A stretch of DNA of 62,997 bases, filler included, from Folioceros fuciformis (lineage: Eukaryota), in NCBI GenBank assembly GCA_049999805.1. It is 4 parts of 3 records of this genome, joined end to end, with 100 filler letters (N's around TTAATTAATTAA, not from the genome) between each part and the next. Parts side by side here need not be neighbours in the genome. Positions count along the whole stretch, not along the records: positions 27,967 to 56,015 come from JBNGIO010006173.1; 3 more parts are not named here. One strand, written 5' to 3'. Position numbers and translations under genes: made by a program. The notes under the pieces were generated by a model that did not search any database, was not told where the DNA came from, and was given only the letters and a program-made list of their open reading frames with translations. Shown in pieces: positions 5,411-62,997 of this stretch (its first letter is position 1; every line of letters starts with the position of its first letter).

Positions 5411-7227
5411 CCTACTCCTACCCAACAGGAGCCTGCGAAATGCTCTTGAATGAAGCTAAGCTAGTGATGGCGTGGTGGTCGGCGAATTCAGTCCTTGGAG
5501 TGTCCTGTGAGACGGAGCTGTCCCAAGTCGCATTCACCCCCACCCAACGGCAACACCAACGACAGCGATGCGCGTCGAGTCCAGGCGTCCATGTCCTCCG
5601 TGAGCACAAGCGAGCGGTAGCCGGTGCGGGCCGGGCAGAGCTGGGCCGGAACTCAGTGACAAAGCAGAGCAGAGCCGCAGCCGGGGCGGCCTCTACACGA
5701 GTCACGTATCGGCACAGCGGCCGGGCGAAAGGCAGAGGAAGATGATGGAATCTTGAAGGTAGAACTTGGTGGGGTGGTGGAACTGCGTAGTGGCTGGGCT
5801 CCTGCCCGATCCGTCGCGGTCTAAACCGCCTTTAGAGTACATGTTGCAGACGATAATGACCCTGTCCTTGGGGTTGGCCATGGCAGCAGATCATCCTCCG
5901 GCTAAACTGACCCTGCACTCATCGATCCTCACAGCTCAGCCCCACGGATAGGCACGGACAGCGTGACTCCACTTACCGACTCCTCTGTGTCGGCCCTCAG
6001 GGAGGAGGAGGGGAAGGCAAGGAGGGAACAGGAAGCACCAAGACGCGAAGGGAGAAAGGCAGGAAGGAAGGGCAAGCAGGCTGACTTCGGGGCCACGGCA
6101 CTGTCAATGGTATTATCCTCACACAGCTACGCCTGCATGTCACGACCGCCACACCAGCAACACCAAGAACACAACACGAACAACCAGAAGGCAAAGAAGG
6201 GAGAGGAGGAGCGAAGGCAGCGGCAGACGCGGAGCAGCAGGTGCGAGGTCTCAGAGAGTGAGAGCAGATTTGCAGACCTTGGACGGGCGACCGCGATGTA
6301 CGAGGAGTGTGCGACCGAGGCGGAGCATCGTTCGGTGCCGGATATGGCAAGCGCTTGGTCAGCCTGTCACTGCAACTGTACCAAGGAGCGCACAGTTTCT
6401 TCTCCACCTTCCCACTGGGGCTTCGCGGCACCAGCCCATAGCCTGCTGTCGATCTCGATCTCACTCTCGCTCTGTGTCTCGCTGCCAGTCCCAGTCCCAG
6501 TCCCGCGCCCAGCAGCTGGACGTACACTGCATACGTCAGTCCCTCGCCGGCGCCCACCGGCTCAAACGGGCCCCAGCATCAACTCATCAACTTGCACACT
6601 GCGCACGTCACATGCGTCTTCCCCTCCTCTGGATATTCTCTCTCTACCCCTCCAACTTCCACTTCCACCGCATACAGGCCTTCTACTTTTTACACCAGCC
6701 CTAACTCGTCNNNNNNNNNNNNNNNNNNNNNNNNNNNNNNNNNNNNNNNNNNNNNNNNNNNNNNNNNNNNNNNNNNNNNNNNNNNNNNNNNNNNNNNNNN
6801 NNNNNNNNNNCTGAACACTTTCTCCCCCCATCCCCCTTTCCCGGATTTGTACAATTTCCTCTCCGCCTTTCTTTGCCTTCCACCGCCCCCCACTTGCTGC
6901 GTACCCGACACCTTCCCATCTTCCGTGCTGCCAGATTTGGAGGTCCCAGGATCGTATCACATCTAATAACACCTCCACATGTGCTGGAACCATTCCTTCA
7001 CCGCCACTTCACTTTTGCTTATCCTTTTCCTTTTTCCGTCACTGGATGCTTCATTCAATTGTTTGTTTCTTTGTTTCTTTCCCTGTTTCTCGTCTCCTGT
7101 TCCTGGTTCCGATCCCCAGCAACTGACCCCGCTTCAGAAAGCTTTCTGTCCGTGTCTCTTCTGCTCCCCTCCCTTCTTTGTGCCCTCAAGATCACAGATA
7201 TAGTTGTATTTCCTTCAACAATCAAAG

Positions 7228-26450: not shown

Positions 26451-26680
26451 AAAGGGCTTGGTTAGACCCGGTGATAACGGGAGACATGAGCTTGGTCAGT
26501 CTTCGTTGGATTTATATTAAAGGGCTTGGTCAACCACCTTGACAACAAGGGACTCGGTTAGTTTTCTTGGGTGATGTATTAAAGGGTCAGGTCATTCACC
26601 TTGACAACAAGAAAAAAGGCGTGGTTAGTCTTCTTTGTTAATGTATTAAAGGTCTTGGCCGGTCTTCTTTGGTGATATAT
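26451..26680. repeat. Degenerate ~63-66 nt tandem repeat
   Basis: Recurring tattaaaggg..tggt..accttgacaacaag..ggttagt(c/t)ttctt units. Confidence 0.6.
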
Positions 26681-27866: not shown

Positions 27867-27966
27867 NNNNNNNNNNNNNNNNNNNNNNNNNNNNNNNNNN
27901 NNNNNNNNNNTTAATTAATTAANNNNNNNNNNNNNNNNNNNNNNNNNNNNNNNNNNNNNNNNNNNN
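27867..27966. other. Artificial scaffold join (N44-TTAATTAATTAA-N44)
   Basis: Stop-codon linker inside Ns; identical structure at 56016-56115 and 61398-61497. Confidence 0.95.
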
Positions 27967-28353: not shown

Positions 28354-28593
28354 TATGGTGCTTACCACAAACATTTGCTGGTGCCTACCCCGAACATTTT
28401 CTCCTCAAAATAATATGGTGCTTACCACAAACATTTGCTGGTGCCTACCCCGAACATTTTCTCCTCAAAATAATATGGTGCTTACCACAAACATTTGCTG
28501 GTGCCTACCCCGAACATTTTCTCCTCAAAATAATATGGTGCTTACCACAAACATTTGCTGGTGCCTACCCCGAACATTTTCTCCTCAAAATAA
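28354..28593. repeat. 60-nt tandem repeat, 4 identical copies
   Basis: tatggtgcttaccacaaacatttgctggtgcctaccccgaacattttctcctcaaaataa x4. Confidence 0.95.
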
Positions 28594-36637: not shown

Positions 36638-37060
36638 ATGAATTTTCTCAACCTCCAACGGCAGGCGGGGCCGGATGATGCGGCCAAGGGCATTCCTGGA
36701 GATGCATCTTCTAGCGCTGATCTGTTCACCTCTGTGGCCAGCATTTGGGAGCAGAGAGAGAAGGAACGGGGTAGCCTACCGAGGATGCGGGTGTGGAGAG
36801 AGGACTGGAACAAGAGGGGGAAGAAGCTGAACTTTGGACCTGGAGGAGGGGTGGGAGTCGGATGCGGAGCAGGGATAGGGTTTGCTGTCACGGGAGGATT
36901 AGGAGTTGGAGCTCAGCCTTGGAATTCGCTGAAGTTTGTGTTTGGGATCGGAGCAGGGTGCGGAGTTGGGATTGGGTACGGGTTTGGTCATGGCCTTGGT
37001 GTGTTATGGGATCGCAGGCCGAAAAAGAAGAGCGAGAAACGTATCGTGTTTGAGCTGTAG
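36638..37060 (+). CDS. Small glycine-rich membrane protein with a TGD5-like GxGxGCGxG pattern, intronless
   Basis: FGPGGGVGVGCGAGIGF...FGIGAGCGVGIGYGFGHGLG. Confidence 0.75.
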   Translation: MNFLNLQRQAGPDDAAKGIPGDASSSADLFTSVASIWEQREKERGSLPRMRVWREDWNKRGKKLNFGPGGGVGVGCGAGIGFAVTGGLGVGAQPWNSLKFVFGIGAGCGVGIGYGFGHGLGVLWDRRPKKKSEKRIVFEL

Positions 37061-37328
37061 GCTGGTCTTCGTGCTTGGAAAGGGTGGTTCGCCCACTGCT
37101 ACGGTGGTTGCGGCAATGCTGTGCTATTAAGCTTGTACAATTTGTACAGTCCAAACAGAATTTCAGACTCTTGGGCAGTCTTTTACAAGATGCACAAGAA
37201 TAGCAGCAGCGAAGAGATGGCTTCGGTATCGCTTGCGAGATGAAGTCAGGGAATTTCCATTTGTACGAGTGATGATGTAAGTGTGTATGTATCTACGAGC
37301 TGCAAGTTTTGGGAGGACCATGCCAGAC

Positions 37329-38741
37329 TCAAAGCTTCTGCTCCATGTGCGTTCTCACCACCGAGGTGAGGGAAGGATGAGGACTGGGTCTTTTCATGGA
37401 ACGGGCATCACTCATGCCCTCAGAGTATATCTCTCCGAGCTGCCACCGAGGCCTGAGGTCCAAAAATACGTCTTCTGCCTCGTCCATGGGAGGGGGAGGT
37501 TCGAACAGGCCCATACGGAAATGCTCTGCGCCAGCCCAGGCCACCATAACGCCGTTGTCTGTACACAGCCTTGAAGGAGGACAGACAAGGCGCAGCCCCT
37601 GCTCTTGGGCAAGCTCTGCCAGACTGGCCCTAACAACCCTGTTGGAGGCAACCCCTCCAGACACCACAAGGCACTGGATGTCGGGCTCTAACCTCTTGCC
37701 CCATTCGATCCCTCTGCGGCATTTCTCCTGCAGATGCTGCACAGCAACTCGCTGGAAAGAGGCAGCCACGTCGGCTCGGGCTCTGCGCTCGTCCGGGTTT
37801 GCCTCCGCTAAAGGGACTCCGTCAGTGTTGATCCTCCTGGCGGTTATGGCCAGCCTCACCTGGTTTTTCAGGCCGGCGTAGGAGAAATTGCAGGTCCTGT
37901 TGTTGCGCATAGGTACGGAAAGCGGCAACGCCTGCGGATTGCCCTCTAGGGCTAGCTCCTCCAAAGCAGGCCCGCCCCCTCGCTTGATGTCGAGGCCCAG
38001 CAGGCGGGCCGTCTTGTCATAGGCCTCGCCGATGGCATCGTCCACGGTGGTGCCGAGCTGGATATAGCGGCCCACGCCCTGCGCGAGCAATATGAGATTG
38101 TGACCCCCGGAAACCAGCAGCACCATGAATGGGAAGTGCACGTCCTGATCCGTGAGCCTGACCACCAGAGCATGCGCCTCCATGTGGTGCACGCCTACCA
38201 GAGGCAGCCTGTGAGCCCGTGCAATGCTGCGGGCCTTGCTTACACCGACCTCCAGGCAGGGGCTGAGACCCGGCCCGATCGTGACCGCCACTGCATCCAG
38301 ATCCGCCTCCGTCAGCCCCGCGTTGGACAGCGCCTGGGCCACCACGCTGTCGATGGCCTCTGCGTGGTAGTCCTTAGCCAGGTGAGGCACAACACCGCCC
38401 CACTTCCCCAGCATCTCGGCCTGGGACGCAAGGCACTCGCCCAGTATCCTCCCATCCGTGGTCACCACTGCAGCGCCCGTGTCATCGCAGCTGGTCTCGA
38501 TTCCAAGCAAAACCACCTCTTCCTCTGTTCCCACCTCCTTGCACAACGCCCTGGCCGTTCGGGATACAACCTCCCAATCCGATAGCTTGATGCTACTGCG
38601 CCGTGCCGCAGATGAAGGCAAACGCCTCGTAAAACGGCGCGAGGGAGGCTGGCAAGCGTATCGGGCTGGCGTCATGCCGAGAGGACGCAGCACAGGCATC
38701 ATCCTTGCCACAACCATCCTCCTGCAGAACAACAACCTCAT
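37329..38741 (-). CDS. GCP1: Organellar (mitochondrial) tRNA t6A threonylcarbamoyltransferase, GCP1/OSGEPL1/Qri7, intronless
   Basis: LGIETSCDDTGAAVV, GGVVP, AVTIGPGL, HHMEAHAL, LLVSGGH, DDAIGEAYDK, FSYAGLK, SGGVASN, CTDNGVMVAWAG; Arg-rich presequence. Confidence 0.95.
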   Translation of the reverse strand: MRLLFCRRMVVARMMPVLRPLGMTPARYACQPPSRRFTRRLPSSAARRSSIKLSDWEVVSRTARALCKEVGTEEEVVLLGIETSCDDTGAAVVTTDGRILGECLASQAEMLGKWGGVVPHLAKDYHAEAIDSVVAQALSNAGLTEADLDAVAVTIGPGLSPCLEVGVSKARSIARAHRLPLVGVHHMEAHALVVRLTDQDVHFPFMVLLVSGGHNLILLAQGVGRYIQLGTTVDDAIGEAYDKTARLLGLDIKRGGGPALEELALEGNPQALPLSVPMRNNRTCNFSYAGLKNQVRLAITARRINTDGVPLAEANPDERRARADVAASFQRVAVQHLQEKCRRGIEWGKRLEPDIQCLVVSGGVASNRVVRASLAELAQEQGLRLVCPPSRLCTDNGVMVAWAGAEHFRMGLFEPPPPMDEAEDVFLDLRPRWQLGEIYSEGMSDARSMKRPSPHPSLTSVVRTHMEQKL

Positions 38742-39109
38742 GCGTCACCCTAAAGCTTTCAATTCCCATTTCACGGCTTGACAAATTACATAAACCCAAA
38801 AGCCAGATCGCAGATCCAGGCCTGCTCGCAGTTGCAACTCAATTGTGAGCAAACCACACATGACACACGCAAGAGTGTCATTACGGACTCTTGCAAGAAC
38901 AATTATCACACGATGTTCTCATGGGCTACCGCTACCTAACACCAGGGCTGGCTAGCTTCAAATTGCAACAGCGGAGCTCTAGCCCAAAAAATCACGAAAG
39001 GGAGTCTCCAGACATCTAGACTCGGGCTTCACATCTGCAAAATTGAAGGGCACTATCATGTCGTCGACGCTGTCGCATCACAGTGCTCCAAGGAGTGCGC
39101 CGTCTTGAC

Positions 39110-39307
39110 CTAAACGGGACTGAGGAGCTGCGAAAGCTGCGGCCGGGGCTCTGTGCGCATGCCGATAAAGATGACCAGGGGAATGAATCCGTAGTGCGTG
39201 GCAGTCTTAGCCTTCTTCAGTAACCATGTCGGCCACTCCTTGATCACGGTGTTCAGAGTCTGCGGGGACAGGATGTCCTTCTTGGACCTGGATCCCGGTG
39301 GAGCCAT
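39110..39307 (-). CDS. TOM7: Mitochondrial import receptor subunit TOM7
   Basis: [43 protein letters not shown], the plant Tom7 signature. Confidence 0.95.
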
Positions 39308-39506
39308 GGGGTCCTTCCTGTCTGCCTTCTTGCCTGCAGGCAACACGTGCTTGCCCCGCTTCCTGACCTGGATTCTCACCCCCTTGGCCAGTGCTGCTGC
39401 CTTGATACTCCGAGTGACAACGTTCGCGCGGAAACAAGGAGTAGAAGAAGAAGAAGATTTCTATTGGACCTTAGCGAGCTCATTCAACTTTAACCGTTGT
39501 GCTCGG

Positions 39507-39516
39507 AAACCCTAAA
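39507..39516. promoter_or_regulatory. Telo-box AAACCCTAAA in the divergent promoter of TOM7 and the unknown gene
   Basis: Exact telo-box motif between head-to-head starts. Confidence 0.5.
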
Positions 39517-39610
39517 CGGTGCTTTCCTTGTCTAGGTGCGAAGTAGGGTGCTGAGATTCGAGACTGCTTCGAGTTGGCTTTTCCTCCAGATCCATGCTCG
39601 GTCGGCAAGT

Positions 39611-40419
39611 ATGTGTCATCTGGTGGCGACCCCATTGTCGAGGCCGCACGCCTTCTCTACTGTGGATAGCACGAGAAGATCGTGCTTCCATTGTTCCGCG
39701 GGCCTCCAGCAAGTGCAGCATGTCGGCTCTGTAGCGGCCAGTGTAGGCAGGGATGACTATGCCTGGAATGGCGCATCACTATCCTTGACCGCCCCACCTC
39801 TGGTCGGGAGGTCGGATTCTTTGGGAATGATGATGGGGGTATCTGCAGATGCGCCTGAGGAGATCACGGACGGGTTTAAGTTCTCTGTTAAGGTGATTCA
39901 GAAGCCTGAGGAAAGGAATTCAGGGGAAGGAGAACAGACCGTGCGCTCCTTCTGGGATGCTCTGGGAAGGGCATTTGAGCCTCCTTTCAGGCAATCCGGC
40001 GAGACGACCGCTGTGATCGAGCAGACGGGAGCTTCTCCATCGTTTTTTGGTATCAAGGGTGGAGCGGATCCTGTGCAGTTCGCTTTGGTCAGGTTAGTGA
40101 CAGGTCCTCCTTGCAGCACCCCAGATGATGTACAGCTACTCCCTTTGGCGTTATGAAATAGGAGCTGACATGCCGGCCCGTCTGCAGTGTAGGACTTATA
40201 TTCGTGTGGTGGCTCGGAAACTACTACGTCCCCGATCAAGTGTTCAAGAACACAGTCTTCAGGAACCAGCCGAAAGACAACGCTTTCAGTGTTGATACAG
40301 GGAAAGGCGAGGCTGAAGTTGACACGTCTGAGCAGATTAACGGATCTCGAGCCTCTGGTTTTTCCGACCAAACCGGAAAGCCCAACAAGAAACCACGGCG
40401 CAAATCCAAGCGAAGCTAA
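39611..40419 (+). CDS. Uncharacterised single-pass membrane protein, probably plastid-targeted, 2 exons (intron 40093-40187)
   Basis: AG|gttagt...ctgcag| splice joins two ORFs in frame, giving the hydrophobic segment VQFALVSVGLIFVWWLGNYYVPD; Ser/Thr/Arg-rich N-terminus; basic C-terminal tail. Confidence 0.65.
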
Positions 40420-41092
40420 GAGTTTTAACTCGCACACTCGTTGCACATGTGCACACCTTGACTCCAGTTTCCAGCCCATTCACATTCAGTCCGGTCTCAA
40501 CCCAGTCACTTTTCAGCTACGAAACAACCACCTGTACTTGGACCACCTGCAAGTCGATCACCAACCACAGACGTCTTCAGCCCCACTCGCCTGCGTAGTC
40601 TCATTTCTCATATTCTCTATCGGAAATGGAGCACAGGACTTCAAGGTCTTGCGTTGTAGCGGAGTTACGCAATTGCTGTCCAATCCCCCTTTGAAGGAAC
40701 AGGGACACGGCACTGTCCCTGAACCACAAATTGAACAGGCCATCAGTAAATACTCGAAGCAGCATCCCTCTCAAGAGTGCTTATTGGACAGTCTTTAAAA
40801 TCAGACACAATTATCTGGGAATCACTTCTTACGTTTCTGCTTTCGCGTGACTCACAGGGAAGCACACAGAAAACTGGATGACGATCTAATCTAAAGGATA
40901 TTGATATCGAGCTCAGCCTAGGTTCCCACCTTCATGACCAAGGAGAACAGAGATAGTTTAGCATTCAAATGTTTCTTTGAAGATTTCAATTTGACTAAAT
41001 GACCTACGTCATGTGTGCCAGATGGTGATAAAGCAGACGCCATGGTCGAAGCCGAGGTCTGCCGTTGGCGAGGTCTGCCTTCGCCTAGCTCC

Positions 41093-42527
41093 TTATCCTG
41101 TTTCTCCCTGTGGCGCAGCGTCCAAGACTCCAACTAAACACTTCTCTAACAAAAATTCAGCGTTCACCCATGCATGGTACTTGTCTTAATAATTAGTTAA
41201 GGATAACAATGCCGTGGCCCACGAACAGGTGGACAAATGCATCGCGAGAAGAGGATACTGAATAAAGACGTGCAGTCCCTCCCTGCACCCTTGATCAGCA
41301 TGTCCCGTCCTGTCAAAAAATGGAGCTACAGTTAGCATATTAAAATAGAGCTTCACATACTGTTCGACACGACTGAAAAACAGGATACAAAGGGCAGACA
41401 CCGCACAGTGTTACAATGCACTTGCCACTTAGCATAGTCTGGTTATCGATTCTCCATCGACCACAATGACGCTCTAGGCGCTTCCCTGGGTTTGCTCGGG
41501 TGAGAAAGCCCAGTTTCGGCATTGAGGTTTACTTTGGCTGGCATGAACACAGCTGTGACTTGGACCAAGAGTCTGACAGTTGTTGGGGAGTTTCCAGCTA
41601 AATGGACCGTCTCACCGGCAATGAAAGCACCCTACTGCCCCTTGTGTTGATGTTAACAACTGTGGAAAGAGAAGGGAATTTGGTTTGGATACCTCCAGGG
41701 TGGAATCTGAGGTAAGGCGAGATGTTGTACACACGGCCACGCAGCACAGTCCATGCATCCTCATCAGTGTTGTGGAGCTTTACCTCTTCCATGGAAATGG
41801 GCCTCCTGCTCGACCGACCCTTCAATCCTGTAGCACAGAAGGGTGTTAGGTTGCTACCACATTGAAAGCAGGTCGTCACCACGACGATGAGATCCAAGAG
41901 CAGCCAAACCTGCGAGATCAGCCTTGGTTTGTGTAAGCTTCAGCCAATCCATCTGACTGTAGCCCTTCTCCAGTGGAACTTTTGCTCGTATCTTTGGTTT
42001 CGGAGGAGGCATCAACAACGCTGTATTCGGTGCAGATGCATCATCACCCGCCTGAAGAAATGGGACATCCGGAGCTCTAGCTGCCAGGGCTCTGGGAGAG
42101 ACCTGTAAAGTCTGAAGGTGATCGAATGTATCTGCAGTGGAAGGACCGGCTTCCTCAGCATGTATGCAAGAATCCTGGCTTGAGATAGAGTAGCCAGACG
42201 ATATCCTTGGCATCATGGTCGGCGACTCCAGATCGTCGGTTCTGATAAGATTATTCCCCTGCAACACAAACATTGGTTGATCAAACTTGCACCTATTTCT
42301 GAGCGAGCGGGAAGATCTAAGGGGACAAGCGCCCGCTGTTGCCAAAGGGTAGCAAGAGGTTGATCCTCCTAGTCACAGATCCATGAACTCAAAGGCAAAG
42401 CTAGCCCAGCCCAGCCAAGGACGGGACGGGACTTTCAGGCGGCACGGCCTGTTCCCATCACCCTAGCCATGGCTTCTCTCTACGCAGGGCACGCATCGAA
42501 TCTAACCTTCAGGAAGGAAAAATCCAT
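41093..42527 (-). CDS. RLF: Cytochrome b5-like heme-binding protein RLF (REDUCED LATERAL ROOT FORMATION), 5 exons
   Basis: MDFSFLK|, [67 protein letters not shown]. Confidence 0.92.
41185..41258 (-). other. U12-type (minor spliceosome) GT-AG intron in RLF
   Basis: 5' splice site GTATCCTCT; branch point TCCTTAAC close to an AAG acceptor with no polypyrimidine tract; removal restores F-N-K-Y-H. Confidence 0.88.
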
Positions 42528-43548
42528 CGCAGCTGCTTCTGTGGTCGTCCTCTCCAGCTCAAATTCGTGCAGACCTCGTGAGCTGTGCTACCTCGTGCTG
42601 TGCTCGCTGTAAGGCCAGAGCCTTGTCCGCGTACAGGAAGAAAAGGAGCGGCAATCGCTACAGGTTTCAATATGCAGGCATATTCTGCTGTTCCTCGTTG
42701 TCCCAGTTACGCTTCCACGGACCATGTGCCTTGCGTTTCGAGGACTGATGACTTTAGGTCGTCTGACATGGTGTCCCTCGAAGTCCTCCGAAGTCCTCCG
42801 AGGTACATATTTGTGCCAATCCCCGCTCGTTCCAACAACGCCAAAGAATATGCAAGCTTTGCTTCCAAGAATTTCCGTTGCCATACAATCAGGGCCTCCA
42901 TAACGAGGCTGGCCTGACGATTGTAGCCTCCTATCACGTATGAGCACAGTGTGAACTTTTCTTTGGGGGCACTGGGTTCTGTCGTTACGTTTTCCAGTTA
43001 CTATCAGCGACGAAGGGCACGACTCCCTTGGTTTTGATCGTACTGATTTACTCGTGGTGGGAAGCGTACATTCTCTGAGCGTGATTAGTGTCTGTTCACA
43101 GATGAGGGAGGACTCCTAGGAGGCCTTCACCTGCAAACCCTTCCCCAGAAGAATGGCATGAAATAACTTGTCTGAGCAAGCTAAAACGCCAACGAACGCA
43201 TCGATAGTAGGCCGATGTCTGTATCTCGTGATCCAGTATGTTGTTCGTAATGCACTGACAAAGGACTCCACACAATACCGAGCAACTGCCTGAGGAAGCT
43301 CGATCTTAACCCCTGGCCCCTGTTGGCGTTGGTTAGGATTATGGCATCTAAACTTACAATCTGTAGCGTGTTTTATGAAAACTGGAAATCCCTACGGGCA
43401 AGCGGTAGATGCATGGAATGCACGTCATGTTAGGTGACCCATCTCCTAAACCCTGGAAATTCCCACCCCACCCTGGCCCGTATGGCTCGGAATTGATTTG
43501 TGTCAGGTTCTGGAGTCTCTGCCTGCCCAGGGCTGGTAGAGTGTCGAA

Positions 43549-46051
<2,503 letters not shown>

Positions 46052-46234
46052 ATTGGTGCCCGAGATAAGTTGCTTGTAAAGATCATCAGTGGTTGAAATG
46101 AACAAAACTTGGCTTTGTGGTGCTGTAAGAACAATCCGAGACCCAAAGCCTAAACTAAAAGTAGTCATCCTGCCATCCTCATCAGTGTGTCTAATCAACA
46201 CTTTGACATCAGAATAGATACGTGGGGGATCCAA

Positions 46235-46869
46235 CTAAACAATCTTCTTTGCGCGCGTGGCAGGATTCTCATCGGCCTCCAAAAACATCATAAACACATA
46301 ACCCATGATCCACACGAGGACAAACCTCCAGGGGACCCAGCAGGCAACGCCAAGAAGACTCAGGATCGACCCGATGTATTGGGGATCCTTCATGTACCCA
46401 AACGGAAAACCGGTCACCCAGGGAATATTCTTTCCGAATCGGACTCCATAGTACACACCAGCTTCCCCCAGTAGATCGTAAACTCTGCATTAAGAGAGAT
46501 GCAAGGCCGAAATAGTATGTGAGACGAACGTCCTGAACTAGAGCAAATCGATGATATAAGAAACTCATAGATGAAACAGCAAGCTCACCTGTAGTTCAAA
46601 AATTGGCCTACGCCAAAGAGCATGACGCAGTACCAAGGGGGCATCCTGGTGATAGAAGCAGCAGAGAGCACTGCTAGGATCTGGGCAACCTTAAGGACCA
46701 GCGACACTTCGGCCATGCGGTGGCTGGGATCCACATCTGTCCCGCAAAACTGCACCCATCGTTGCGGATTGGTCCACAAGTACCAGTAGAAGTAGAAGGG
46801 CGCCAATATGAGGGTCCAAACCACCAAATTGTGCCACCCCACGCTCTCCAGAACCGCGAGAATCCCCAT
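46235..46869 (-). CDS. PLMT: Phospholipid (phosphatidyl-N-methylethanolamine) N-methyltransferase, 2 exons
   Basis: PFYFYWYLWTNPQRW..DPSHRMAEVS..GQFLNY|RVYDLLGEAGVYYGVRFGKNIPWVTGFPFGYMKDPQYIGS. Confidence 0.93.
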
Positions 46870-47019
46870 TGCCTGCCCTGAGTCTGCGATCCCGTCGTCG
46901 GGAGATAGTAAGGTACCCCGTGGCAGCTGCTTGAGTCTGGACTGAAATGGGCGGGAACTCGAACCTCTTAGTAGACGTTTCATGATATGCACGTGGCCAT
47001 CTCGCATTTGGCCCTTCTC

Positions 47020-47028
47020 TTAGGGTTT
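47020..47028. promoter_or_regulatory. Telo-box (TTAGGGTTT) next to a site II-like TTGGCCC in the PLMT/mL53 divergent promoter
   Basis: Motifs seen at 47008-47028, upstream of a ribosomal protein gene. Confidence 0.5.
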
Positions 47029-47170
47029 GGGTTTCCGTTAGGCTGCCTATCCTGGAACTACAGCAAGGCGGAGACTAACGAAATGCACGAGAGTGTATGC
47101 TGAACCGGAAGGTGCAGTCACCACAATCGCGGGGACTTGGACACGACGTCGAGCCCGGGCGGGAGGCAGG

Positions 47171-47518
47171 ATGTTTAAGCATTTGTCGCGGGTGAAGATC
47201 GAGTTCAATCCACTGGACCCTCGGTCGTGTTCCGCGCTGGAGTTTCTTGCACAGTGTAACTCCCGGAAGGCGCGAGCTTCCAACCCTGACTGCGAGGTGG
47301 TGGTGAAGCGACGCACCGACAGTCACCATCCCCAGGTCACCATTACATTCATCAACGGCAAGGAAGAGGTGCTGGATGGATCTAAGCTGCCAGCACAGGT
47401 CATGCGCAATCGCATTTTCGAGCAGGCGGAGTTCATGGAGACGGAGCAGCTGTTTAAGGATTCCGGGTTGGACTTGTCGGGCCACCATCCCTCCAGGGAA
47501 GAGCTGCTCAAGAGCTAG
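47171..47518 (+). CDS. MRPL53: Mitochondrial ribosomal protein mL53, intronless
   Basis: MFKHLSRVKIEFNPLDPRSCSALEFLAQCNSRKARASNPDCEVVVKRRTD, matching plant mL53 from recall. Confidence 0.88.
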   Translation: MFKHLSRVKIEFNPLDPRSCSALEFLAQCNSRKARASNPDCEVVVKRRTDSHHPQVTITFINGKEEVLDGSKLPAQVMRNRIFEQAEFMETEQLFKDSGLDLSGHHPSREELLKS

Positions 47519-47974
47519 TAAGATTTCAGAAATTCTTGTTTGCTCGAGTGGAAGTTAGATTTGTCACTCTCCTCGTACTCTATGAGCAACAGGTAAGATG
47601 GCACGAATCACGGCTCCCTACTTCTGGCCCTCACGTTGGGTCTGACTGAAGACTAGTGCAAAACGCTTGCTGTACAATTGTCGTTGTCACTCGAACATGT
47701 TTTGAGCTGAGAACTGAATCCCAGATGTATGTCTGTGTGACAAAAAAACTGGAGCCCACGACGGTATTCGAAGGCATTACACTAGTTTTCAAGCCGTGTT
47801 GGGGCGGTGCCCAGACAAGATATGCCAGGATTGGTGTCCATAACTGATTGATTTGCCAAGTCTAATTCGTTGAAGAAGTCATCGTGCTTTCGATTAGGTG
47901 GCGCTAGAGAGCGCCGTGCCTTCCCGTCTCTAAATCTTTGGCAATACTTGTGAACAGAAAACATGATCGACAAC

Positions 47975-49220
47975 CTAGGCGAACAATTGAGGATTGAGCC
48001 AGTCCCTACGCAGCACAGAATCGTACAAAGGACAAGAGAAAATCAGAGAACCCCACAGATTGTACAACAAATGAGTACAACATAAGCGGAAAATGAACGG
48101 AAGCAGACTAGTCACCCAACCAACACATCCAGCACTTTTAGATGGCATAAAAAAGACATACTTCGAGACATCGTCCAAATGGTCATCAAAATCCACCACC
48201 AGGTGCTCTCTTCCTTCAGAGATGTAGTCCAAAAGGATGCTATTTGCAGTAGCCTCCTTCAGCTGAAGCTCTCCAGAAATGTGCCACCCTTTTGCACTAT
48301 CACGCACAAACAACTGAAACACAAACCCAAGATGAACCCTCAGGGGCAGAGAAAGGGAGTTGCTGCGTTCAGTGTGCGAGGGAGAGGAGGCGAGCAAGCT
48401 AGGGTAACGGTGCTTCAATCAACAAGTTGATGAGTCTTGCAGCCACTCAACTTTCCAATACCTGAGTCACGGGTTTCGTCTTGTTCTTCGTAGTAAGACC
48501 ACCAAGTAGCTCATGATCAAGCTGCAGAGATATTGCCAGAAAGAAAATCCATATTAGATCAGGTCAGCTCTGCTACAGACATAAAGAGGCTAAGAATCTG
48601 TGAAGCTGAACCCTAAACCCAGAATCGGTGTTTGTGCTCACGTCTGACACTTACCAGGAGTATAATGGCCTCGGGACAATATTGTGCTATCTTGTCGCCA
48701 ATCTTGCGAGCAATAGAGTTCACCTCGGTATCATCAAGCAGCTCATTCCCATGGTAGTAGCCGACGATGGCAAGGTCATCATTCTGTGTTTGTAGATATG
48801 CGTCAACCTGTCCAAAAACAAAATGATTGCTGCTCAGTTTACAGCAAACTCATCGTGACTTGAGATCCATGTTATGCCAGCCAAGAGCTCGGAACTGCTC
48901 GAAACTTCGATTCACAAATCCGACAGTGAAAATTTCATGTCCCTCTCAGCTACCTGAGTGAGAGCGAGCTCAAGCATTGGAAGCAGCCCCAGCTGGCCAT
49001 GAAAGAGCGGCACAGCATCAACAACCTCAACACTGCCATTTCCCTCCGCTCCTTCCGGAAGTGTCTCCTGGCCAGTCACTCTTCCAATGAGGACACCGTT
49101 TACGCCACTCGTTTTGTGCTTGAGCGCGTGCAACACAAGCTTGACGTAGGCAGCCTGAGCAATTTTGAACTGGTTGCCATCTCCCGCCAAGACCTTGGAT
49201 TTGGATCCCGGTGGAGCCAT
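47975..49220 (-). CDS. EMC8: ER membrane protein complex subunit 8/9 homolog (MPN-like), 5 exons
   Basis: AYVKLVLHALKHKTSGVNGVLIG, DAVPLFHG..LPMLELAL, IVGYYHGNE, LVVDFDDHLDDVSK|DWLNP. Confidence 0.94.
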
Positions 49221-50290
49221 GGCGTCCTTCCCGGCTGTGTGCTCGCCTACAAACGGCACCTGCTTGTCCCGCCTTTCCCCCTGGATTCCCAAACCCTTTC
49301 CGGTGCCGCCGAGTTTCTGGTTTGGAATGGCAGAGGTGGCTTGCCGCCAAAACTCTGCTACGCAACCTCTTCAACTTCAATTGCAGAGGTCGTAAACATC
49401 AAACGGCGCCGGTCAGGGCTTTCCTCTTTGTGGGGAGCCGAATAGGGTAGACTACCTACTCGCTGTGTGCGGTCGAACTTAGGCGATCCGTGCTCGGCTC
49501 ACTCAGCATAACTCATCAGGTAGCAACCCCATGAACGAGGCCTACTCTTTCGTCGACAGCAGAAGACCGTGCTTGTGTTTCTCAACAAGCTTCTACCAGT
49601 TGCGGCATGTGAACAGTGCCCAGAATGGGCAGGGACAACACCGACGAATAATTCCCTGGTAGCTCCGCTCCAGGCTAGAAGGCCAGATCCCTGGTCTTTG
49701 ATGATGGTCACCGTCTCCGCAGATGCTTCCGAGCAGATCTCCAGAGGAGACAATCAAGCAATGAGCAGAAGACGTACATGATCGCCCCGTCAAGCCTAGC
49801 TTAAAGTAAGACTTCGTCCATAGGAACTCCATTCAGGGCTCCAAACAGAACTATGTACTACATTCTGGATTCCGTGCCCAAGTGCTTCACTTGCTGGGTG
49901 CAAATGAGGAACTGTCTAGTGAAATCGTTGCAAGCTCATCCATTCTTTGCTGGACTCATCTGTTCAATTATTCCTCAGCATTCCCAGCTAATCCTTCACC
50001 GATGACAAGAAATACGTTGGCTAGAATTCATAACCATTTTTATATCTTATAGCTCCCTTTATACATAGATCATATAGATGACCACCAAAATTAGATCTAT
50101 AGGACTTGATTTGTGCACCAAGCTCTTGAGTATGGTCACAACAGCTTTTGTGACTGCATTCATGTTACAGCTAGATTTCCAAATTATCTATCCTAAAACC
50201 AAATAAAAGAATAACCCAATAAAAATCATCCTTGGATAGGACATATGAGGTACAATTGATAGCTTTATACATTCACTATATTCTTAGACC

Positions 50291-50383
50291 TAATCTAATC
50301 TTTGCAATTCTACGTTGTTTTTAGGATAAATGATTTTAATCTAATCTTTGTAGTTCTACTTTGTTTTTAGGATAAATGATTTT
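50291..50383. repeat. 46-nt tandem duplication in an AT-rich intergenic island
   Basis: taatctaatctttg(ca/ta)(a/g)ttctac(g/t)ttgtttttaggataaatgattt x2. Confidence 0.8.
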
Positions 50384-50585
50384 GTTCTATCTTTTTTTAA
50401 TAAAGTCTTGCGTTTCGTTCCTCTCTAGCTACTCTATGTTAGATGTGAGTTCGATGAAAGTAATTACATACCTTTACCAAGGTTGGGTCTGCAAGGCGTT
50501 TGCAGCAGAGGAGACTTTTACAGGCGAGCATCAACACATTGTTTTGTCCCCGTGGTTCACTTGTTCTCTGGCTGCATCCGCAGCC

Positions 50586-55833: not shown

Positions 55834-56117
55834 ACCTTCACGGCAACAGAAGTACCCGAATAGCTCGATTCCCCAAAAACCAACCACCCTCAAGTAGAAG
55901 ATTTTATAATAAAATCCATCTAATCTACGCATCACTGACGGAATGGAATAATCTTGGGAAGAAGATAAAGAAAATAATTTACATGTTGCCGTTCAATCTA
56001 TGCTATAATCTACTGNNNNNNNNNNNNNNNNNNNNNNNNNNNNNNNNNNNNNNNNNNNNTTAATTAATTAANNNNNNNNNNNNNNNNNNNNNNNNNNNNN
56101 NNNNNNNNNNNNNNNAG

Positions 56118-56474: not shown

Positions 56475-56863
56475 CTCCCTCGACAGCGTGGGAGCGTGGG
56501 AGCACAGGGATCTTGCGGTCCATCTCTGGATATACAGTATGTATAACATTCGCTCGGATCATTGATTGTTGGCGGCGGTAGATGAGGTACTCCGCCTTTT
56601 AGGCATTGCGTACCGTGTGCAACCTCTCCAGTTGCTACAGTTACTAACTAATGCAGCTCTCCTCCCGCGGGATGCTCCGCAGATTCTGAAACATTGCCAG
56701 GCAATCGGGGTAGGGGGGACACACGATACGATAAGAAAATTTGGGTACCTTTGTGGAATGAAAGCCAATGGTTAGGAAAGGCTGAGGGACCACACAACAC
56801 TCCTATGCAATATGGGGTATATGCACAAGAACATGCACACAGTTTACGCCTAGTGACACTTGG

Positions 56864-56985
56864 GCAGGATGACGTTCCCATAAAAATTCAATGCACTTAC
56901 GCAGGATGACGTTCCCATAAACAGTCAATGCACCGGGGCAGGATGACGTTCCCATAAACATTCAAGGATGACGTTCCCATAAAAA
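56864..56985. repeat. Four copies of (gc)aggatgacgttcccataaa
   Basis: Copies start at ~56864, 56901, 56938 and 56965. Confidence 0.9.
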
Positions 56986-57595
56986 TTCGATAAAGAGAGC
57001 GTGCAGAATATTCTGCTAGCCTCTCTTCAGCTAGGAGAATTCCAGGGAAGAGTTGATAGACCAGATGTTTTCGGGTATAGAAGGATCGTTGAAAACAGGA
57101 CTCTTTCAGGGCTGGCTGCAGCCTGCAGGTGTTGGCTGCCCCTGTTCCATGGAGGGCTATCGTGGCCAGGTACGAGGAGGGCCTAAACTTGTATTCAGAA
57201 TTTCACGAGCAGAGGGCCGCAATGCTGGGTATGACCCTTCGCCACAGGACTAATCGTTTCGCAGGCTGTGACCGTTGTGACCAGCAGGGAATTTGTAGGA
57301 CTACCAAAATCACAGGTTCAAGAGTAGGTTGCTGCTTCGAACCCCTCGACTAGTAAGATCTGACTTAACGTTTCGAGAGGATTAACTATTTGTTCTGAGC
57401 AGGTGGAGATTGATGGCTGCCTGTTGAATCCTTCCTAACTACTGTCTGGTTGCTGGGAAGTCGTACGCTGCATTGGCATCGTCAAGTCACGATGGACCCC
57501 TGAGTGGCCAAAGCATACATCTCCTTCCTCTCTCTTAGGATGTTGGCGTAGTTCCCATTCGTGGATGGAACTATCCCCTTCTCTGCAAGCAAGCG

Positions 57596-61316: not shown

Positions 61317-61497
61317 TTCCAAGTATTATTGGCTATTAAGGAGCCATATTCGGACTGGACAGATGCTTTCCACTTGCATGTACTAAGGGCTTCTTCTNNN
61401 NNNNNNNNNNNNNNNNNNNNNNNNNNNNNNNNNNNNNNNNNTTAATTAATTAANNNNNNNNNNNNNNNNNNNNNNNNNNNNNNNNNNNNNNNNNNNN

Positions 61498-62926
61498 TAC
61501 TGCTCTAAGAAAGGGCATATAGCCCCAGAATGCAGAAAAAGGCAGCGTGACAGAGCTGCTGGAATATTTAATTCCCAAGGGAGTACCCCTAGCACATCTG
61601 CCTTAGCCACAAGTTCCAAAAATACTTACCTCTTTACTGCCACCTCTGCCTTGGCTACCAGCTCCATACTCCCAGATACTTGGCTCCTTGACTCTGGGGC
61701 CACTGAACATATGACACCAAGAAAGGATTGGTTTTCTGAATATTCTACTCTGGAAGTACCCCTACCTGTTCTCATGGGTGATGATTCTACTCATATGGCT
61801 GTGGGTCAGGAAACCATCCAAATACAAATACAAGACCTCATTGCTCATGTTAGAAACGTCCTACATGTTCCTGGATTATCCAAAAACCTACTTTCTGTGA
61901 ATCAAATCGTCAGTAACCCCAACTCCCAAGTTACCTTTAACCAGTATGGATGTCTGATCCATACAACTACCTCAGATGGCCACGCAAGATGTATACAGTG
62001 TCCTCGTACAGGGGGATTGTTTCCATTGGGCATCGGGATTTCTACACCTGCCCAACCAACGAGTGTAAGCCTCACTGCCAATCTGAACCACAATCTATCT
62101 GCTAGACTCTGGCACCTACGACTCGCCCACTTACACTTCCAAGGAATAAAACGTATGCAAGCTACACATATGGTCGAAGGTCTCCCTGAAAAATTTTCCA
62201 GTGATCTACCCTTATGTGAAGGTTGCTTGCTAGGCAAGCAGCATACTCAACCTTACCCTAGATCAGTGAGCACTACCACTAGTATTCTTGAACTCGTACA
62301 TGCTGACTTGTGTGGCCCTATGCAAACAGAATCCCTCACAGGCAAACTACACATGTTTGTCCTCTTGGACGATTTCAGTCATTACACATTTCTGTCCTTT
62401 CTACGGCACAAGTCAGAAGCCTTTGCCTCCTTCCAGATCTATAAAGCGTTAGTGGAAAACCAGACTGGGAAGCTCATCAAAATTCTTAGAACTGACAACG
62501 CAGGCGAACTTACTTCTCCTGCGTTCGAGGCCTATCTATCCACCCATGGTATTTTGCACCAAAAAATCGTGCCATATGCCCATGCCCAATTAGGCAAAGC
62601 GGAAAGAAGACATCGCTCTCTTATGGAGGCCACTAGGAGCTCTCTTGCCACAGCCGCTCTACCCAACGTCTTGTGGGCTGACGCTGCGGCAACTGCTTGC
62701 TATGTACAAAACCAATGTGGCACCTCCACCCTACCAGACAAGACGCCTTATGAAATCTGGACAGGTAGAAAGCCACAGGTCAGCCACCTTCGCATCTTTG
62801 GTTGTCCGGCTTACAAACATATTCCAACGGAAGGGCGTCGAAAATTAGATCACCGATCTGTGAGACTTACTTTCATTGGCTATGGCGAAAGTGAAAGGTT
62901 ACCGACTACTTGACAAAGCCACTCGG
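61498..62926 (+). mobile_element. Ty1/Copia gag-pol fragment (zinc knuckle, protease, GAG-pre-integrase, integrase)
   Basis: YCSKKGHIAPECRK, WLLDSGATEHM, LWHLRLAH..CEGCLLGKQH, LELVHADLCGPM, LRTDNAGE, GKAERRHRSL, HLRIFGCPAY. Confidence 0.96.
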
Positions 62927-62997
62927 TCACTTTCGCCATAGCCAATGAAAGGTGAAAGGTTACCGACTACTTGACAGAGCCACTCGCAGGGTTACCT

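Follow-up and report, generated by a model that had tools for sequence, protein, structure and literature searches.

A likely old partial duplication of the X–TOM7 head region as the source of the EMC8/9 gene start in Folioceros fuciformis

The window analysed here, a stretch of 62,997 bases from the Folioceros fuciformis genome, carries TOM7 and EMC8/9 (hereafter EMC8) on its minus strand and, on its plus strand, a gene that diverges from TOM7 and that we call X. The gene models and the segments compared between the two loci are as follows.

39110 to 39307, minus strand: TOM7, a single exon of 65 amino acids plus stop (Pfam Tom7, PF08038)
39281 to 39385, minus strand: block A, the TOM7 leader (78 nt) and TOM7 codons 1-9, MAPPGSRSK; one end of the predicted donor segment
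39290 to 39319, minus strand: start-codon core, -12 to +18, identical at 29/30 positions to 49203-49232
39308 to 39610: X–TOM7 intergenic region, 303 nt
39281 to 39865, minus strand: predicted donor segment, 585 nt, comprising TOM7 codons 1-9, leader, X–TOM7 intergenic region and X codons 1-85
39611 to 39865, plus strand: X codons 1-85 within the donor segment
39611 to 40419, plus strand: gene X, divergent from TOM7, with exon 1 at 39611-40092 and exon 2 at 40188-40419 including the stop
40093 to 40187, plus strand: GT-AG intron of gene X, skipped in an RNA-derived contig (run X3, record 9)
47975 to 48807, minus strand: EMC8/9 exons 2-5 at 48655-48807, 48462-48521, 48162-48313 and 47975-48005, from RNA-derived contig joints
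48954 to 49220, minus strand: EMC8/9 exon 1, 89 codons (contig joint 48805/48952, cut +2)
49194 to 49298, minus strand: block B, the predicted copy of block A, now EMC8 leader and EMC8 codons 1-9, MAPPGSKSK
49194 to 49739, minus strand: predicted copied segment, 546 nt, fused in frame to EMC8 at 49193/49194
about 49513 to 49739: decayed X stub, the distal part of the EMC8-side copy

The label TOM7, first given from the sequence alone, was borne out by a Pfam search, in which the product of 39113-39307 matched PF08038 (E 3.6e-18, 65.4 bits, cut-off 27). The domain occupies residues 23-62, which align to profile positions 1-41 of 41, and thus leaves the nine codons shared with EMC8 outside it. 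A protein search returned 30 matches at E ≤ 1e-3, with PF08038 found in all of them; the closest named proteins came from mosses, a liverwort and lycophytes. Aligning the window protein with 13 homologues (14 sequences) revealed 27 invariant columns in the C-terminal core, including THYGFIPL and QLLSPV.

The EMC8/9 label proved equally sound, with the product of 48954-49220 matching UPF0172 (PF03665; E 6.5e-22, 78.8 bits, cut-off 24.4) and exon 1 alone placing residues 18-89 on profile positions 2-63 of 192. Using the joints of one RNA-derived contig (run X3, record 12), we assembled a spliced coding sequence of 663 nt that encodes 220 amino acids, contains zero internal stops and has GT-AG ends at 4/4 introns. 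Its product shares 50-61% identity with each of 5/5 chosen orthologues over 200-214 residues, the alignments starting at residue 16-18, ending at residue 211-219 and extending to the orthologue ends. At the other end of the gene, a single RNA-derived contig (47036-48004) spans both the EMC8 3' end on the minus strand and the whole of an mL53-like gene on the plus strand (about 47042-47518), and the 3' ends of these convergent genes probably overlap or abut.

Gene X, spliced and transcribed, encodes a product of about 237 amino acids that is rich in Ser, Thr and Arg at its N-terminus and has a single hydrophobic helix close to the C-terminus, followed by a tail rich in Lys and Arg. No Pfam family was found for it, and a word-based search for homologues yielded 44 candidates, 0 of them at E ≤ 1e-3. 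An exhaustive HMMER search with X across 1.84 billion representatives gave 2 matches only, at E about 2e-6. One of these, P0079 (257 amino acids), is collinear with X over both exons (E 2e-16 and 2e-15), while the other, P0078 (1858 amino acids), aligns over 7 short stretches. The start of X is most likely at 39611, since the P0079 alignment takes in the stretch ..LTAPPL.., which precedes the MMMG methionines. On these features, the product looks like a lineage-restricted membrane protein. Among 60 metagenome TOM7 loci, mostly moss-like, 0 carried an X homologue beside TOM7 (tblastn with three queries, E ≤ 1e-3), so the X–TOM7 pairing is shown for this lineage only, and X itself may be lineage-restricted.

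TOM7 and EMC8 had been noted to match without gaps over 105 nt, and this similarity was confirmed, with 39281-39385 and 49194-49298 (both minus strand) identical at 80/105 positions (76%) and paired by a self-blastn of the 62,997-base window at E 2.1e-15. The two ATGs, at 39307-39305 and 49220-49218, occupy identical alignment columns as claimed, and the genes do begin with the reported nine-codon starts, MAPPGSRSK in the first block and MAPPGSKSK in the second. Self-blastn of the whole window detected no third copy of the block; the other repeat pairs it returned are short and local or tandem.

The 105-nt extent, although real, is too short, as the duplicated unit measures about 550-585 nt. 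Gapped local alignment joined 39865-39281 to 49739-49194, that is, 585 to 546 nt, in 608 columns of which 359 are identical, 164 mismatched and 85 gapped. The score of 205 compares with a mean of 31.4 and a maximum of 44 across 200 dinucleotide-preserving shuffles, and the bounds were stable when the alignment was rerun in a 5.5-kb context. With the 105-nt block removed, the homology still scored 126 (shuffle maximum 39, n=300), and the part overlapping X scored 99 by itself (shuffle maximum 37). Chance or convergence as the source of the similarity is ruled out by these shuffle statistics together with the self-blastn E value. No homology was seen past either end of 39281-39865 or 49194-49739, where both flanks score 27, which is shuffle level. 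Within this longer duplicate, the 105-nt block is the end that has been conserved best. The sequence-only reading had described a leader and start module passed between two genes; leader and start are included, but the unit amounts to a divergent promoter region together with the heads of both flanking genes, and the two-gene picture is incomplete in that the third gene, X, contributes its first 85 codons.

Both loci were reproduced in assembled contigs from sequencing runs. Run X1 is a DNA run and possibly the source sample, so it does not count as independent support, while X3 comes from a different study and was taken to be RNA-derived because its contigs skip introns (GT..AG / CT..AC ends) where those of X1 do not. 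Block A is covered with 0 differences by X3 record 9 (37000-40089) and X1 record 1 (37000-42028), and block B, likewise with 0 differences, by X3 record 12 (48952-49819, spliced) and X1 record 6 (49174-50256); the X1 contig break at 49164/49174 is bridged by X3 record 12. Record 9 spans an OSGEP-like gene, TOM7 and X, and record 12 extends over the convergent mL53-like gene as well. Both blocks are thus transcribed, in RNA-derived contigs that merge neighbouring genes and so do not resolve mRNA membership. The X4 contigs (organism B) cover neither block.

Misassembly, one of the ways in which the sequence-only reading could have failed, was rejected, since both loci recur in the X1 and X3 contigs. 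No extra X1 contigs at ≥80% likeness fell on either block, where depth is flat at 13.4 and 10.2; this and the presence of two copies in the window disfavour a young high-copy repeat. Older copies, less than 80% identical, may exist elsewhere in the genome, as may another EMC8 gene that starts natively. When metagenome contigs were searched for exact occurrences of a 20-nt core taken from the block, 0 matches were obtained, and comparison of the 585- and 546-nt segments with the 60 metagenome TOM7 loci gave a single 36-nt match (L046, E 2.9e-4), which falls on the pyrimidine run of the TOM7-side segment and was treated as noise.

Elsewhere in the TOM7 neighbourhood, X1 depth reaches 149, against about 13, at about 38013-38080 (region 37934-38400) in the single-exon OSGEP/Qri7-like gene. 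Several contigs match a short conserved stretch only and then diverge, and the pile-up probably consists of bacterial tsaD-like sequences in the same sample.

Comparison of N-termini, which had been suggested as a way to polarise the event, identified TOM7 as donor and EMC8 as recipient. The start pattern MAP..S.K is common to TOM7 relatives in the homologue alignment. The nearest of them, P0001 (75% identical), reads ..GRKAEEAMAPSASNKGKGK, to be compared with the 19 protein letters of leader and start in the window; P0008 starts with MAPRSDSKGKGK, and angiosperm TOM7 with MASK.S.K.KGK. Judged by these relatives, the shared N-terminus is native to TOM7. EMC8 homologues follow a different layout: in 47/47, the Q.AY[VI]K core is preceded at a distance of 5-11 residues by a Met, against 21 residues in the window. 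Neither MAPPGS nor PPGS occurs upstream of the core in any of the 47 homologues (0/47), and the three closest, P0031-P0033, which are ORF calls reading through upstream DNA, have unrelated sequence there.

Gene X provides a third line of evidence. It is only at the TOM7 locus that the unit has two intact genes, X and TOM7; the EMC8 side holds a dead stub of X in which the site aligned to the ATG of X is no longer ATG, frame-breaking gaps have accumulated and the copy ends at X codon 85. The longest ATG-started frame in the stub has 26 codons (49700-49777). The state of X, the TOM7 relatives and the EMC8 homologues agree, and together they support assigning TOM7 as the donor and EMC8 as the recipient. 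The proposal that a local duplication handed a leader and start from one gene to the other is therefore supported, and its direction can be resolved.

The borrowed ATG is, on the predicted gene model, the sole usable start of EMC8. No alternative in-frame ATG precedes one inside the conserved domain, and full-length EMC8 needs the ATG at 49220 because the next in-frame Met sits inside the domain. Within 175 nt of the start, no upstream ATG was found in the TOM7 leader or in the EMC8 leader. X3 record 12 is collinear over 48952-49819, running through the captured ATG and leader with no joint, in contigs that merge neighbours and give no 5' ends. We infer that EMC8 takes both its active promoter and its transcription start from the copy. 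A further EMC8 gene with a native start was not found in the window, and the chimaera appears to be the working EMC8 gene, not an extra new gene. An out-of-frame ATG (..GGA GAT GGC..) lies in EMC8 codons 13-14 (49178-49184, minus strand), 8 residues before the core. As this position falls within the 5-11 range of the homologues, our guess is that EMC8 originally started here and that loss of 1 nt has since put this relic ATG out of frame.

On the basis of these observations, we consider it likely that an old, local, DNA-level partial duplication of the X–TOM7 head region gave EMC8 its start. In this event, about 550-585 bp of the head-to-head region, with X on the plus and TOM7 on the minus strand, would have been copied and inserted 9.9 kb away, in unchanged orientation, at the 5' end of EMC8/9. 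An in-frame join after TOM7 codon 9 would then have led EMC8 to be translated from a TOM7-derived ATG behind a TOM7-derived leader, with transcription probably driven by the borrowed core promoter. On its X side, the copy had no gene body to serve and would have decayed to the stub.

We infer two possible copying routes. In the first, the region would have been duplicated in tandem, one breakpoint lying after TOM7 codon 9 and the other within the 5' end of EMC8, and the second, redundant copy would later have been lost by a deletion beginning at X codon 85; in the other, templated 'filler' DNA would have been synthesised from the nearby template as a break was repaired. The join has the layout that a tandem duplication would yield, with EMC8 body at 49193 directly followed at 49194 by the homologue of 39281. 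The copy shows neither a junction signature nor microhomology nor a target-site duplication.

Divergence between the two copies is unevenly distributed along their length. The identical ungapped columns are as follows.

X stub: 154/229 (67%), JC 0.43
Distal intergenic: 122/191 (64%), JC 0.49
Leader within the 105-nt block: 58/76 (76%), JC 0.28
Nine codons: 25/27 (93%), JC 0.08

In the distal parts, 33-36% of ungapped sites thus differ, and the proximal and distal identities are distinguishable (Fisher p 0.003). Among the nine shared codons, the differences are confined to one; the other eight lack even a synonymous change. To place the event in time, we compared the window with run X7, from a relative roughly 90% identical to it, in which 45/589, 102/713 and 89/1097 letters differ (about 8-14%). 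The X–TOM7 arrangement is kept in X7 record 16, while the EMC8 contig in X7 record 20 includes the nine borrowed codons and ends at 49220. For the leader copy, X7 shows a bin depth of 3.54 only, since its contig stops at the EMC8 ATG. Because the paralogue divergence exceeds the X7 divergence and the X7 EMC8 gene has the nine codons, the capture should be older, several times over, than the split between the window and X7.

The rise in identity towards the ATG, from 64-67% in the distal parts through 76% in the leader to 93% in the nine codons, raises the alternative that the 30-45 nt around the ATG, the nine-residue N-terminus or both form a common control element kept by selection or conversion, with a role in translation initiation, N-terminal processing or mRNA targeting. 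In its favour are the Fisher test (p 0.003), the 29/30 identity of the -12 to +18 core and the conservation of 8/9 codons beside sequence with JC values of 0.43-0.49. However, the signal is short and of modest significance once all windows are counted, and it is explained equally well by separate start-context constraint on each gene or by one conversion tract. Against a common element, too, are the lack of a shared leader fold or Rfam match, the X7 relative in which TOM7 is already altered at codon 7 (39288 C>T, giving Lys as in the EMC8 copy) and the EMC8 homologues, which do without this N-terminus (47/47). We consider a common element unlikely and attribute the high conservation of the core either to ordinary constraint acting on the N-terminus and initiation context or to gene conversion over a short tract.

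The sequence-only reading had further suggested that the shared leader could co-regulate the two genes. The two 105-nt blocks have no common RNA fold (z 0.18 and -2.34, with differing pairings), and no Rfam match was found in 39000-50000 at E ≤ 1. The TOM7-side intergenic region contains AAACCCTAA at 39507-39515, which we take to be telomere-box-like and which is degenerate in the EMC8 copy, and at about 39430-39456 (minus strand, TOM7 side) a long pyrimidine run, mostly deleted in the EMC8 copy. Common regulation of TOM7 and EMC8 is neither supported nor excluded by these sequence comparisons. It is distinctly unlikely that the ATG core acts as a nucleotide-level element coupling the initiation or co-translational handling of TOM7 and EMC8, and that this was the reason why the chimaera replaced the native gene; if true, the core would couple a mitochondrial import subunit with an ER insertase subunit.

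Between the copied segment and a PRP4-like gene, GC content falls to 32-37% over 49900-50500, from about 50% in the surroundings. This AT-rich patch contains a 46-nt tandem duplication at 50291-50382 and a 22-23-nt inverted repeat pairing 50181-50203 with 50360-50382 and 50315-50336. The patch may be a small MITE-like insertion.

Plants offer well-documented examples of gene-fragment capture by Mutator-like elements, as described in the accessible text of one source (PMC4858842), and the copy could in principle have been brought by a fragment-capturing transposon (Pack-MULE-like or Helitron-like) or be a member of a dispersed repeat. Such an origin would gain from the AT-rich patch, which begins about 160 and ends about 760 nt past the distal end of the copy and holds both the small inverted repeat 50181-50203 / 50360-50382 (87%) and the 46-nt tandem repeat. 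However, no inverted or direct repeats flank 49194-49739, the window contains two copies only, no further DNA contigs ≥80% alike fall on the blocks, and the copy lies just 9.9 kb from its source in unchanged orientation, all of which make a transposon or dispersed-repeat origin very unlikely. The reverse polarity, with a module native to EMC8 copied onto TOM7, has no specific support beyond an alignment that is per se symmetric, and it is scarcely credible given that X is truncated and frame-broken on the EMC8 side but complete, with a collinear homologue, on the TOM7 side, and that the N-terminal pattern occurs in TOM7 relatives and in 0/47 EMC8 homologues.

The preferred reading, partial duplication of the X–TOM7 head region, places the event in a known class, that of chimaeric genes formed by partial duplication with capture of a 5' end and promoter. 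As in other 5'-end captures, the homology ends abruptly at or in the heads of unrelated genes, and donor and recipient can be distinguished. In the accessible text of the published reports, tandem-duplication chimaeras of Drosophila yakuba join 5' regulatory sequence, by shuffling, to the bodies of other genes (PMC5460883), partial and chimaeric duplicates are reviewed (PMC3449122), and chimaeric or fusion genes are described in rice (PMC3673630, PMC9199173). The EMC8 case resembles partial-duplication chimaeras in that an upstream region, leader, ATG and first codons are joined in frame to an unrelated body. Unlike them, it has no native-start recipient copy in the window, and it copied a two-headed promoter region, leaving a dead stub of a third gene. 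Moreover, the Drosophila chimaeras, as far as the accessible text describes them, are polymorphisms in a population sample, whereas EMC8 acquired its start long ago, as the mismatch of about 33-36% indicates, and a relative has it too.

Filler DNA consists of a few hundred bases copied from a nearby cis template into another site, with no transposon hallmarks. The EMC8 copy is similar in both respects. It differs in that no junction microhomology is visible at such divergence, at which duplication plus deletion is indistinguishable from templated insertion. Templated 'filler DNA' insertion at plant double-strand-break repair is described in the accessible text of two sources (PMC8871565, PMC5217109). 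Gene families of Schistosoma japonicum, according to the accessible text of PMC3434034, owe their common core promoter and signal sequence to duplication of a 5' end, and thus, like TOM7 and EMC8, combine unrelated bodies with a homologous promoter-proximal region and N-terminal codons. In that text, however, the Schistosoma N-terminus is a functional signal peptide in several genes, whereas here nine residues with no known signal function are shared by two genes, outside both Pfam domains. In the accessible portions of the literature that names both genes, no shared TOM7/EMC8 gene start is mentioned; both mentions of TOM7 in PMC4602282 fall in its references.

These findings suggest that a conserved housekeeping gene, EMC8, swapped its start codon, its leader and probably its promoter for those of a neighbour, which would make the locus a clean, polarised natural example of such an exchange. 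The borrowed EMC8 start has been retained across at least one speciation. For a duplicated bidirectional promoter, the locus would illustrate a case in which the side with a gene body persists and the other decays. It also carries a caveat for annotation, since the N-terminus of this EMC8 is not the orthologue of its counterparts in other plants, and the upstream 'ORF' (49700-49777) represents a pseudogene stub. No long-standing question is opened by the finding, and its novelty is low to moderate.

Elsewhere in the window, paired 44-N runs 12 bases apart were noted at 27867-27966, 56016-56115 and 61398-61497, and 100-N runs at 6711, 9646, 29184, 35376, 55350 and 56364; we read the N runs as masking or scaffold gaps, and none lies near the TOM7/EMC8 duplicate. 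Further short local repeats occur at 26451-26652, 56862-56991 and 62870-62986, and a perfect 60-nt direct repeat is present at 28354-28413 and 28534-28593, 180 nt apart.
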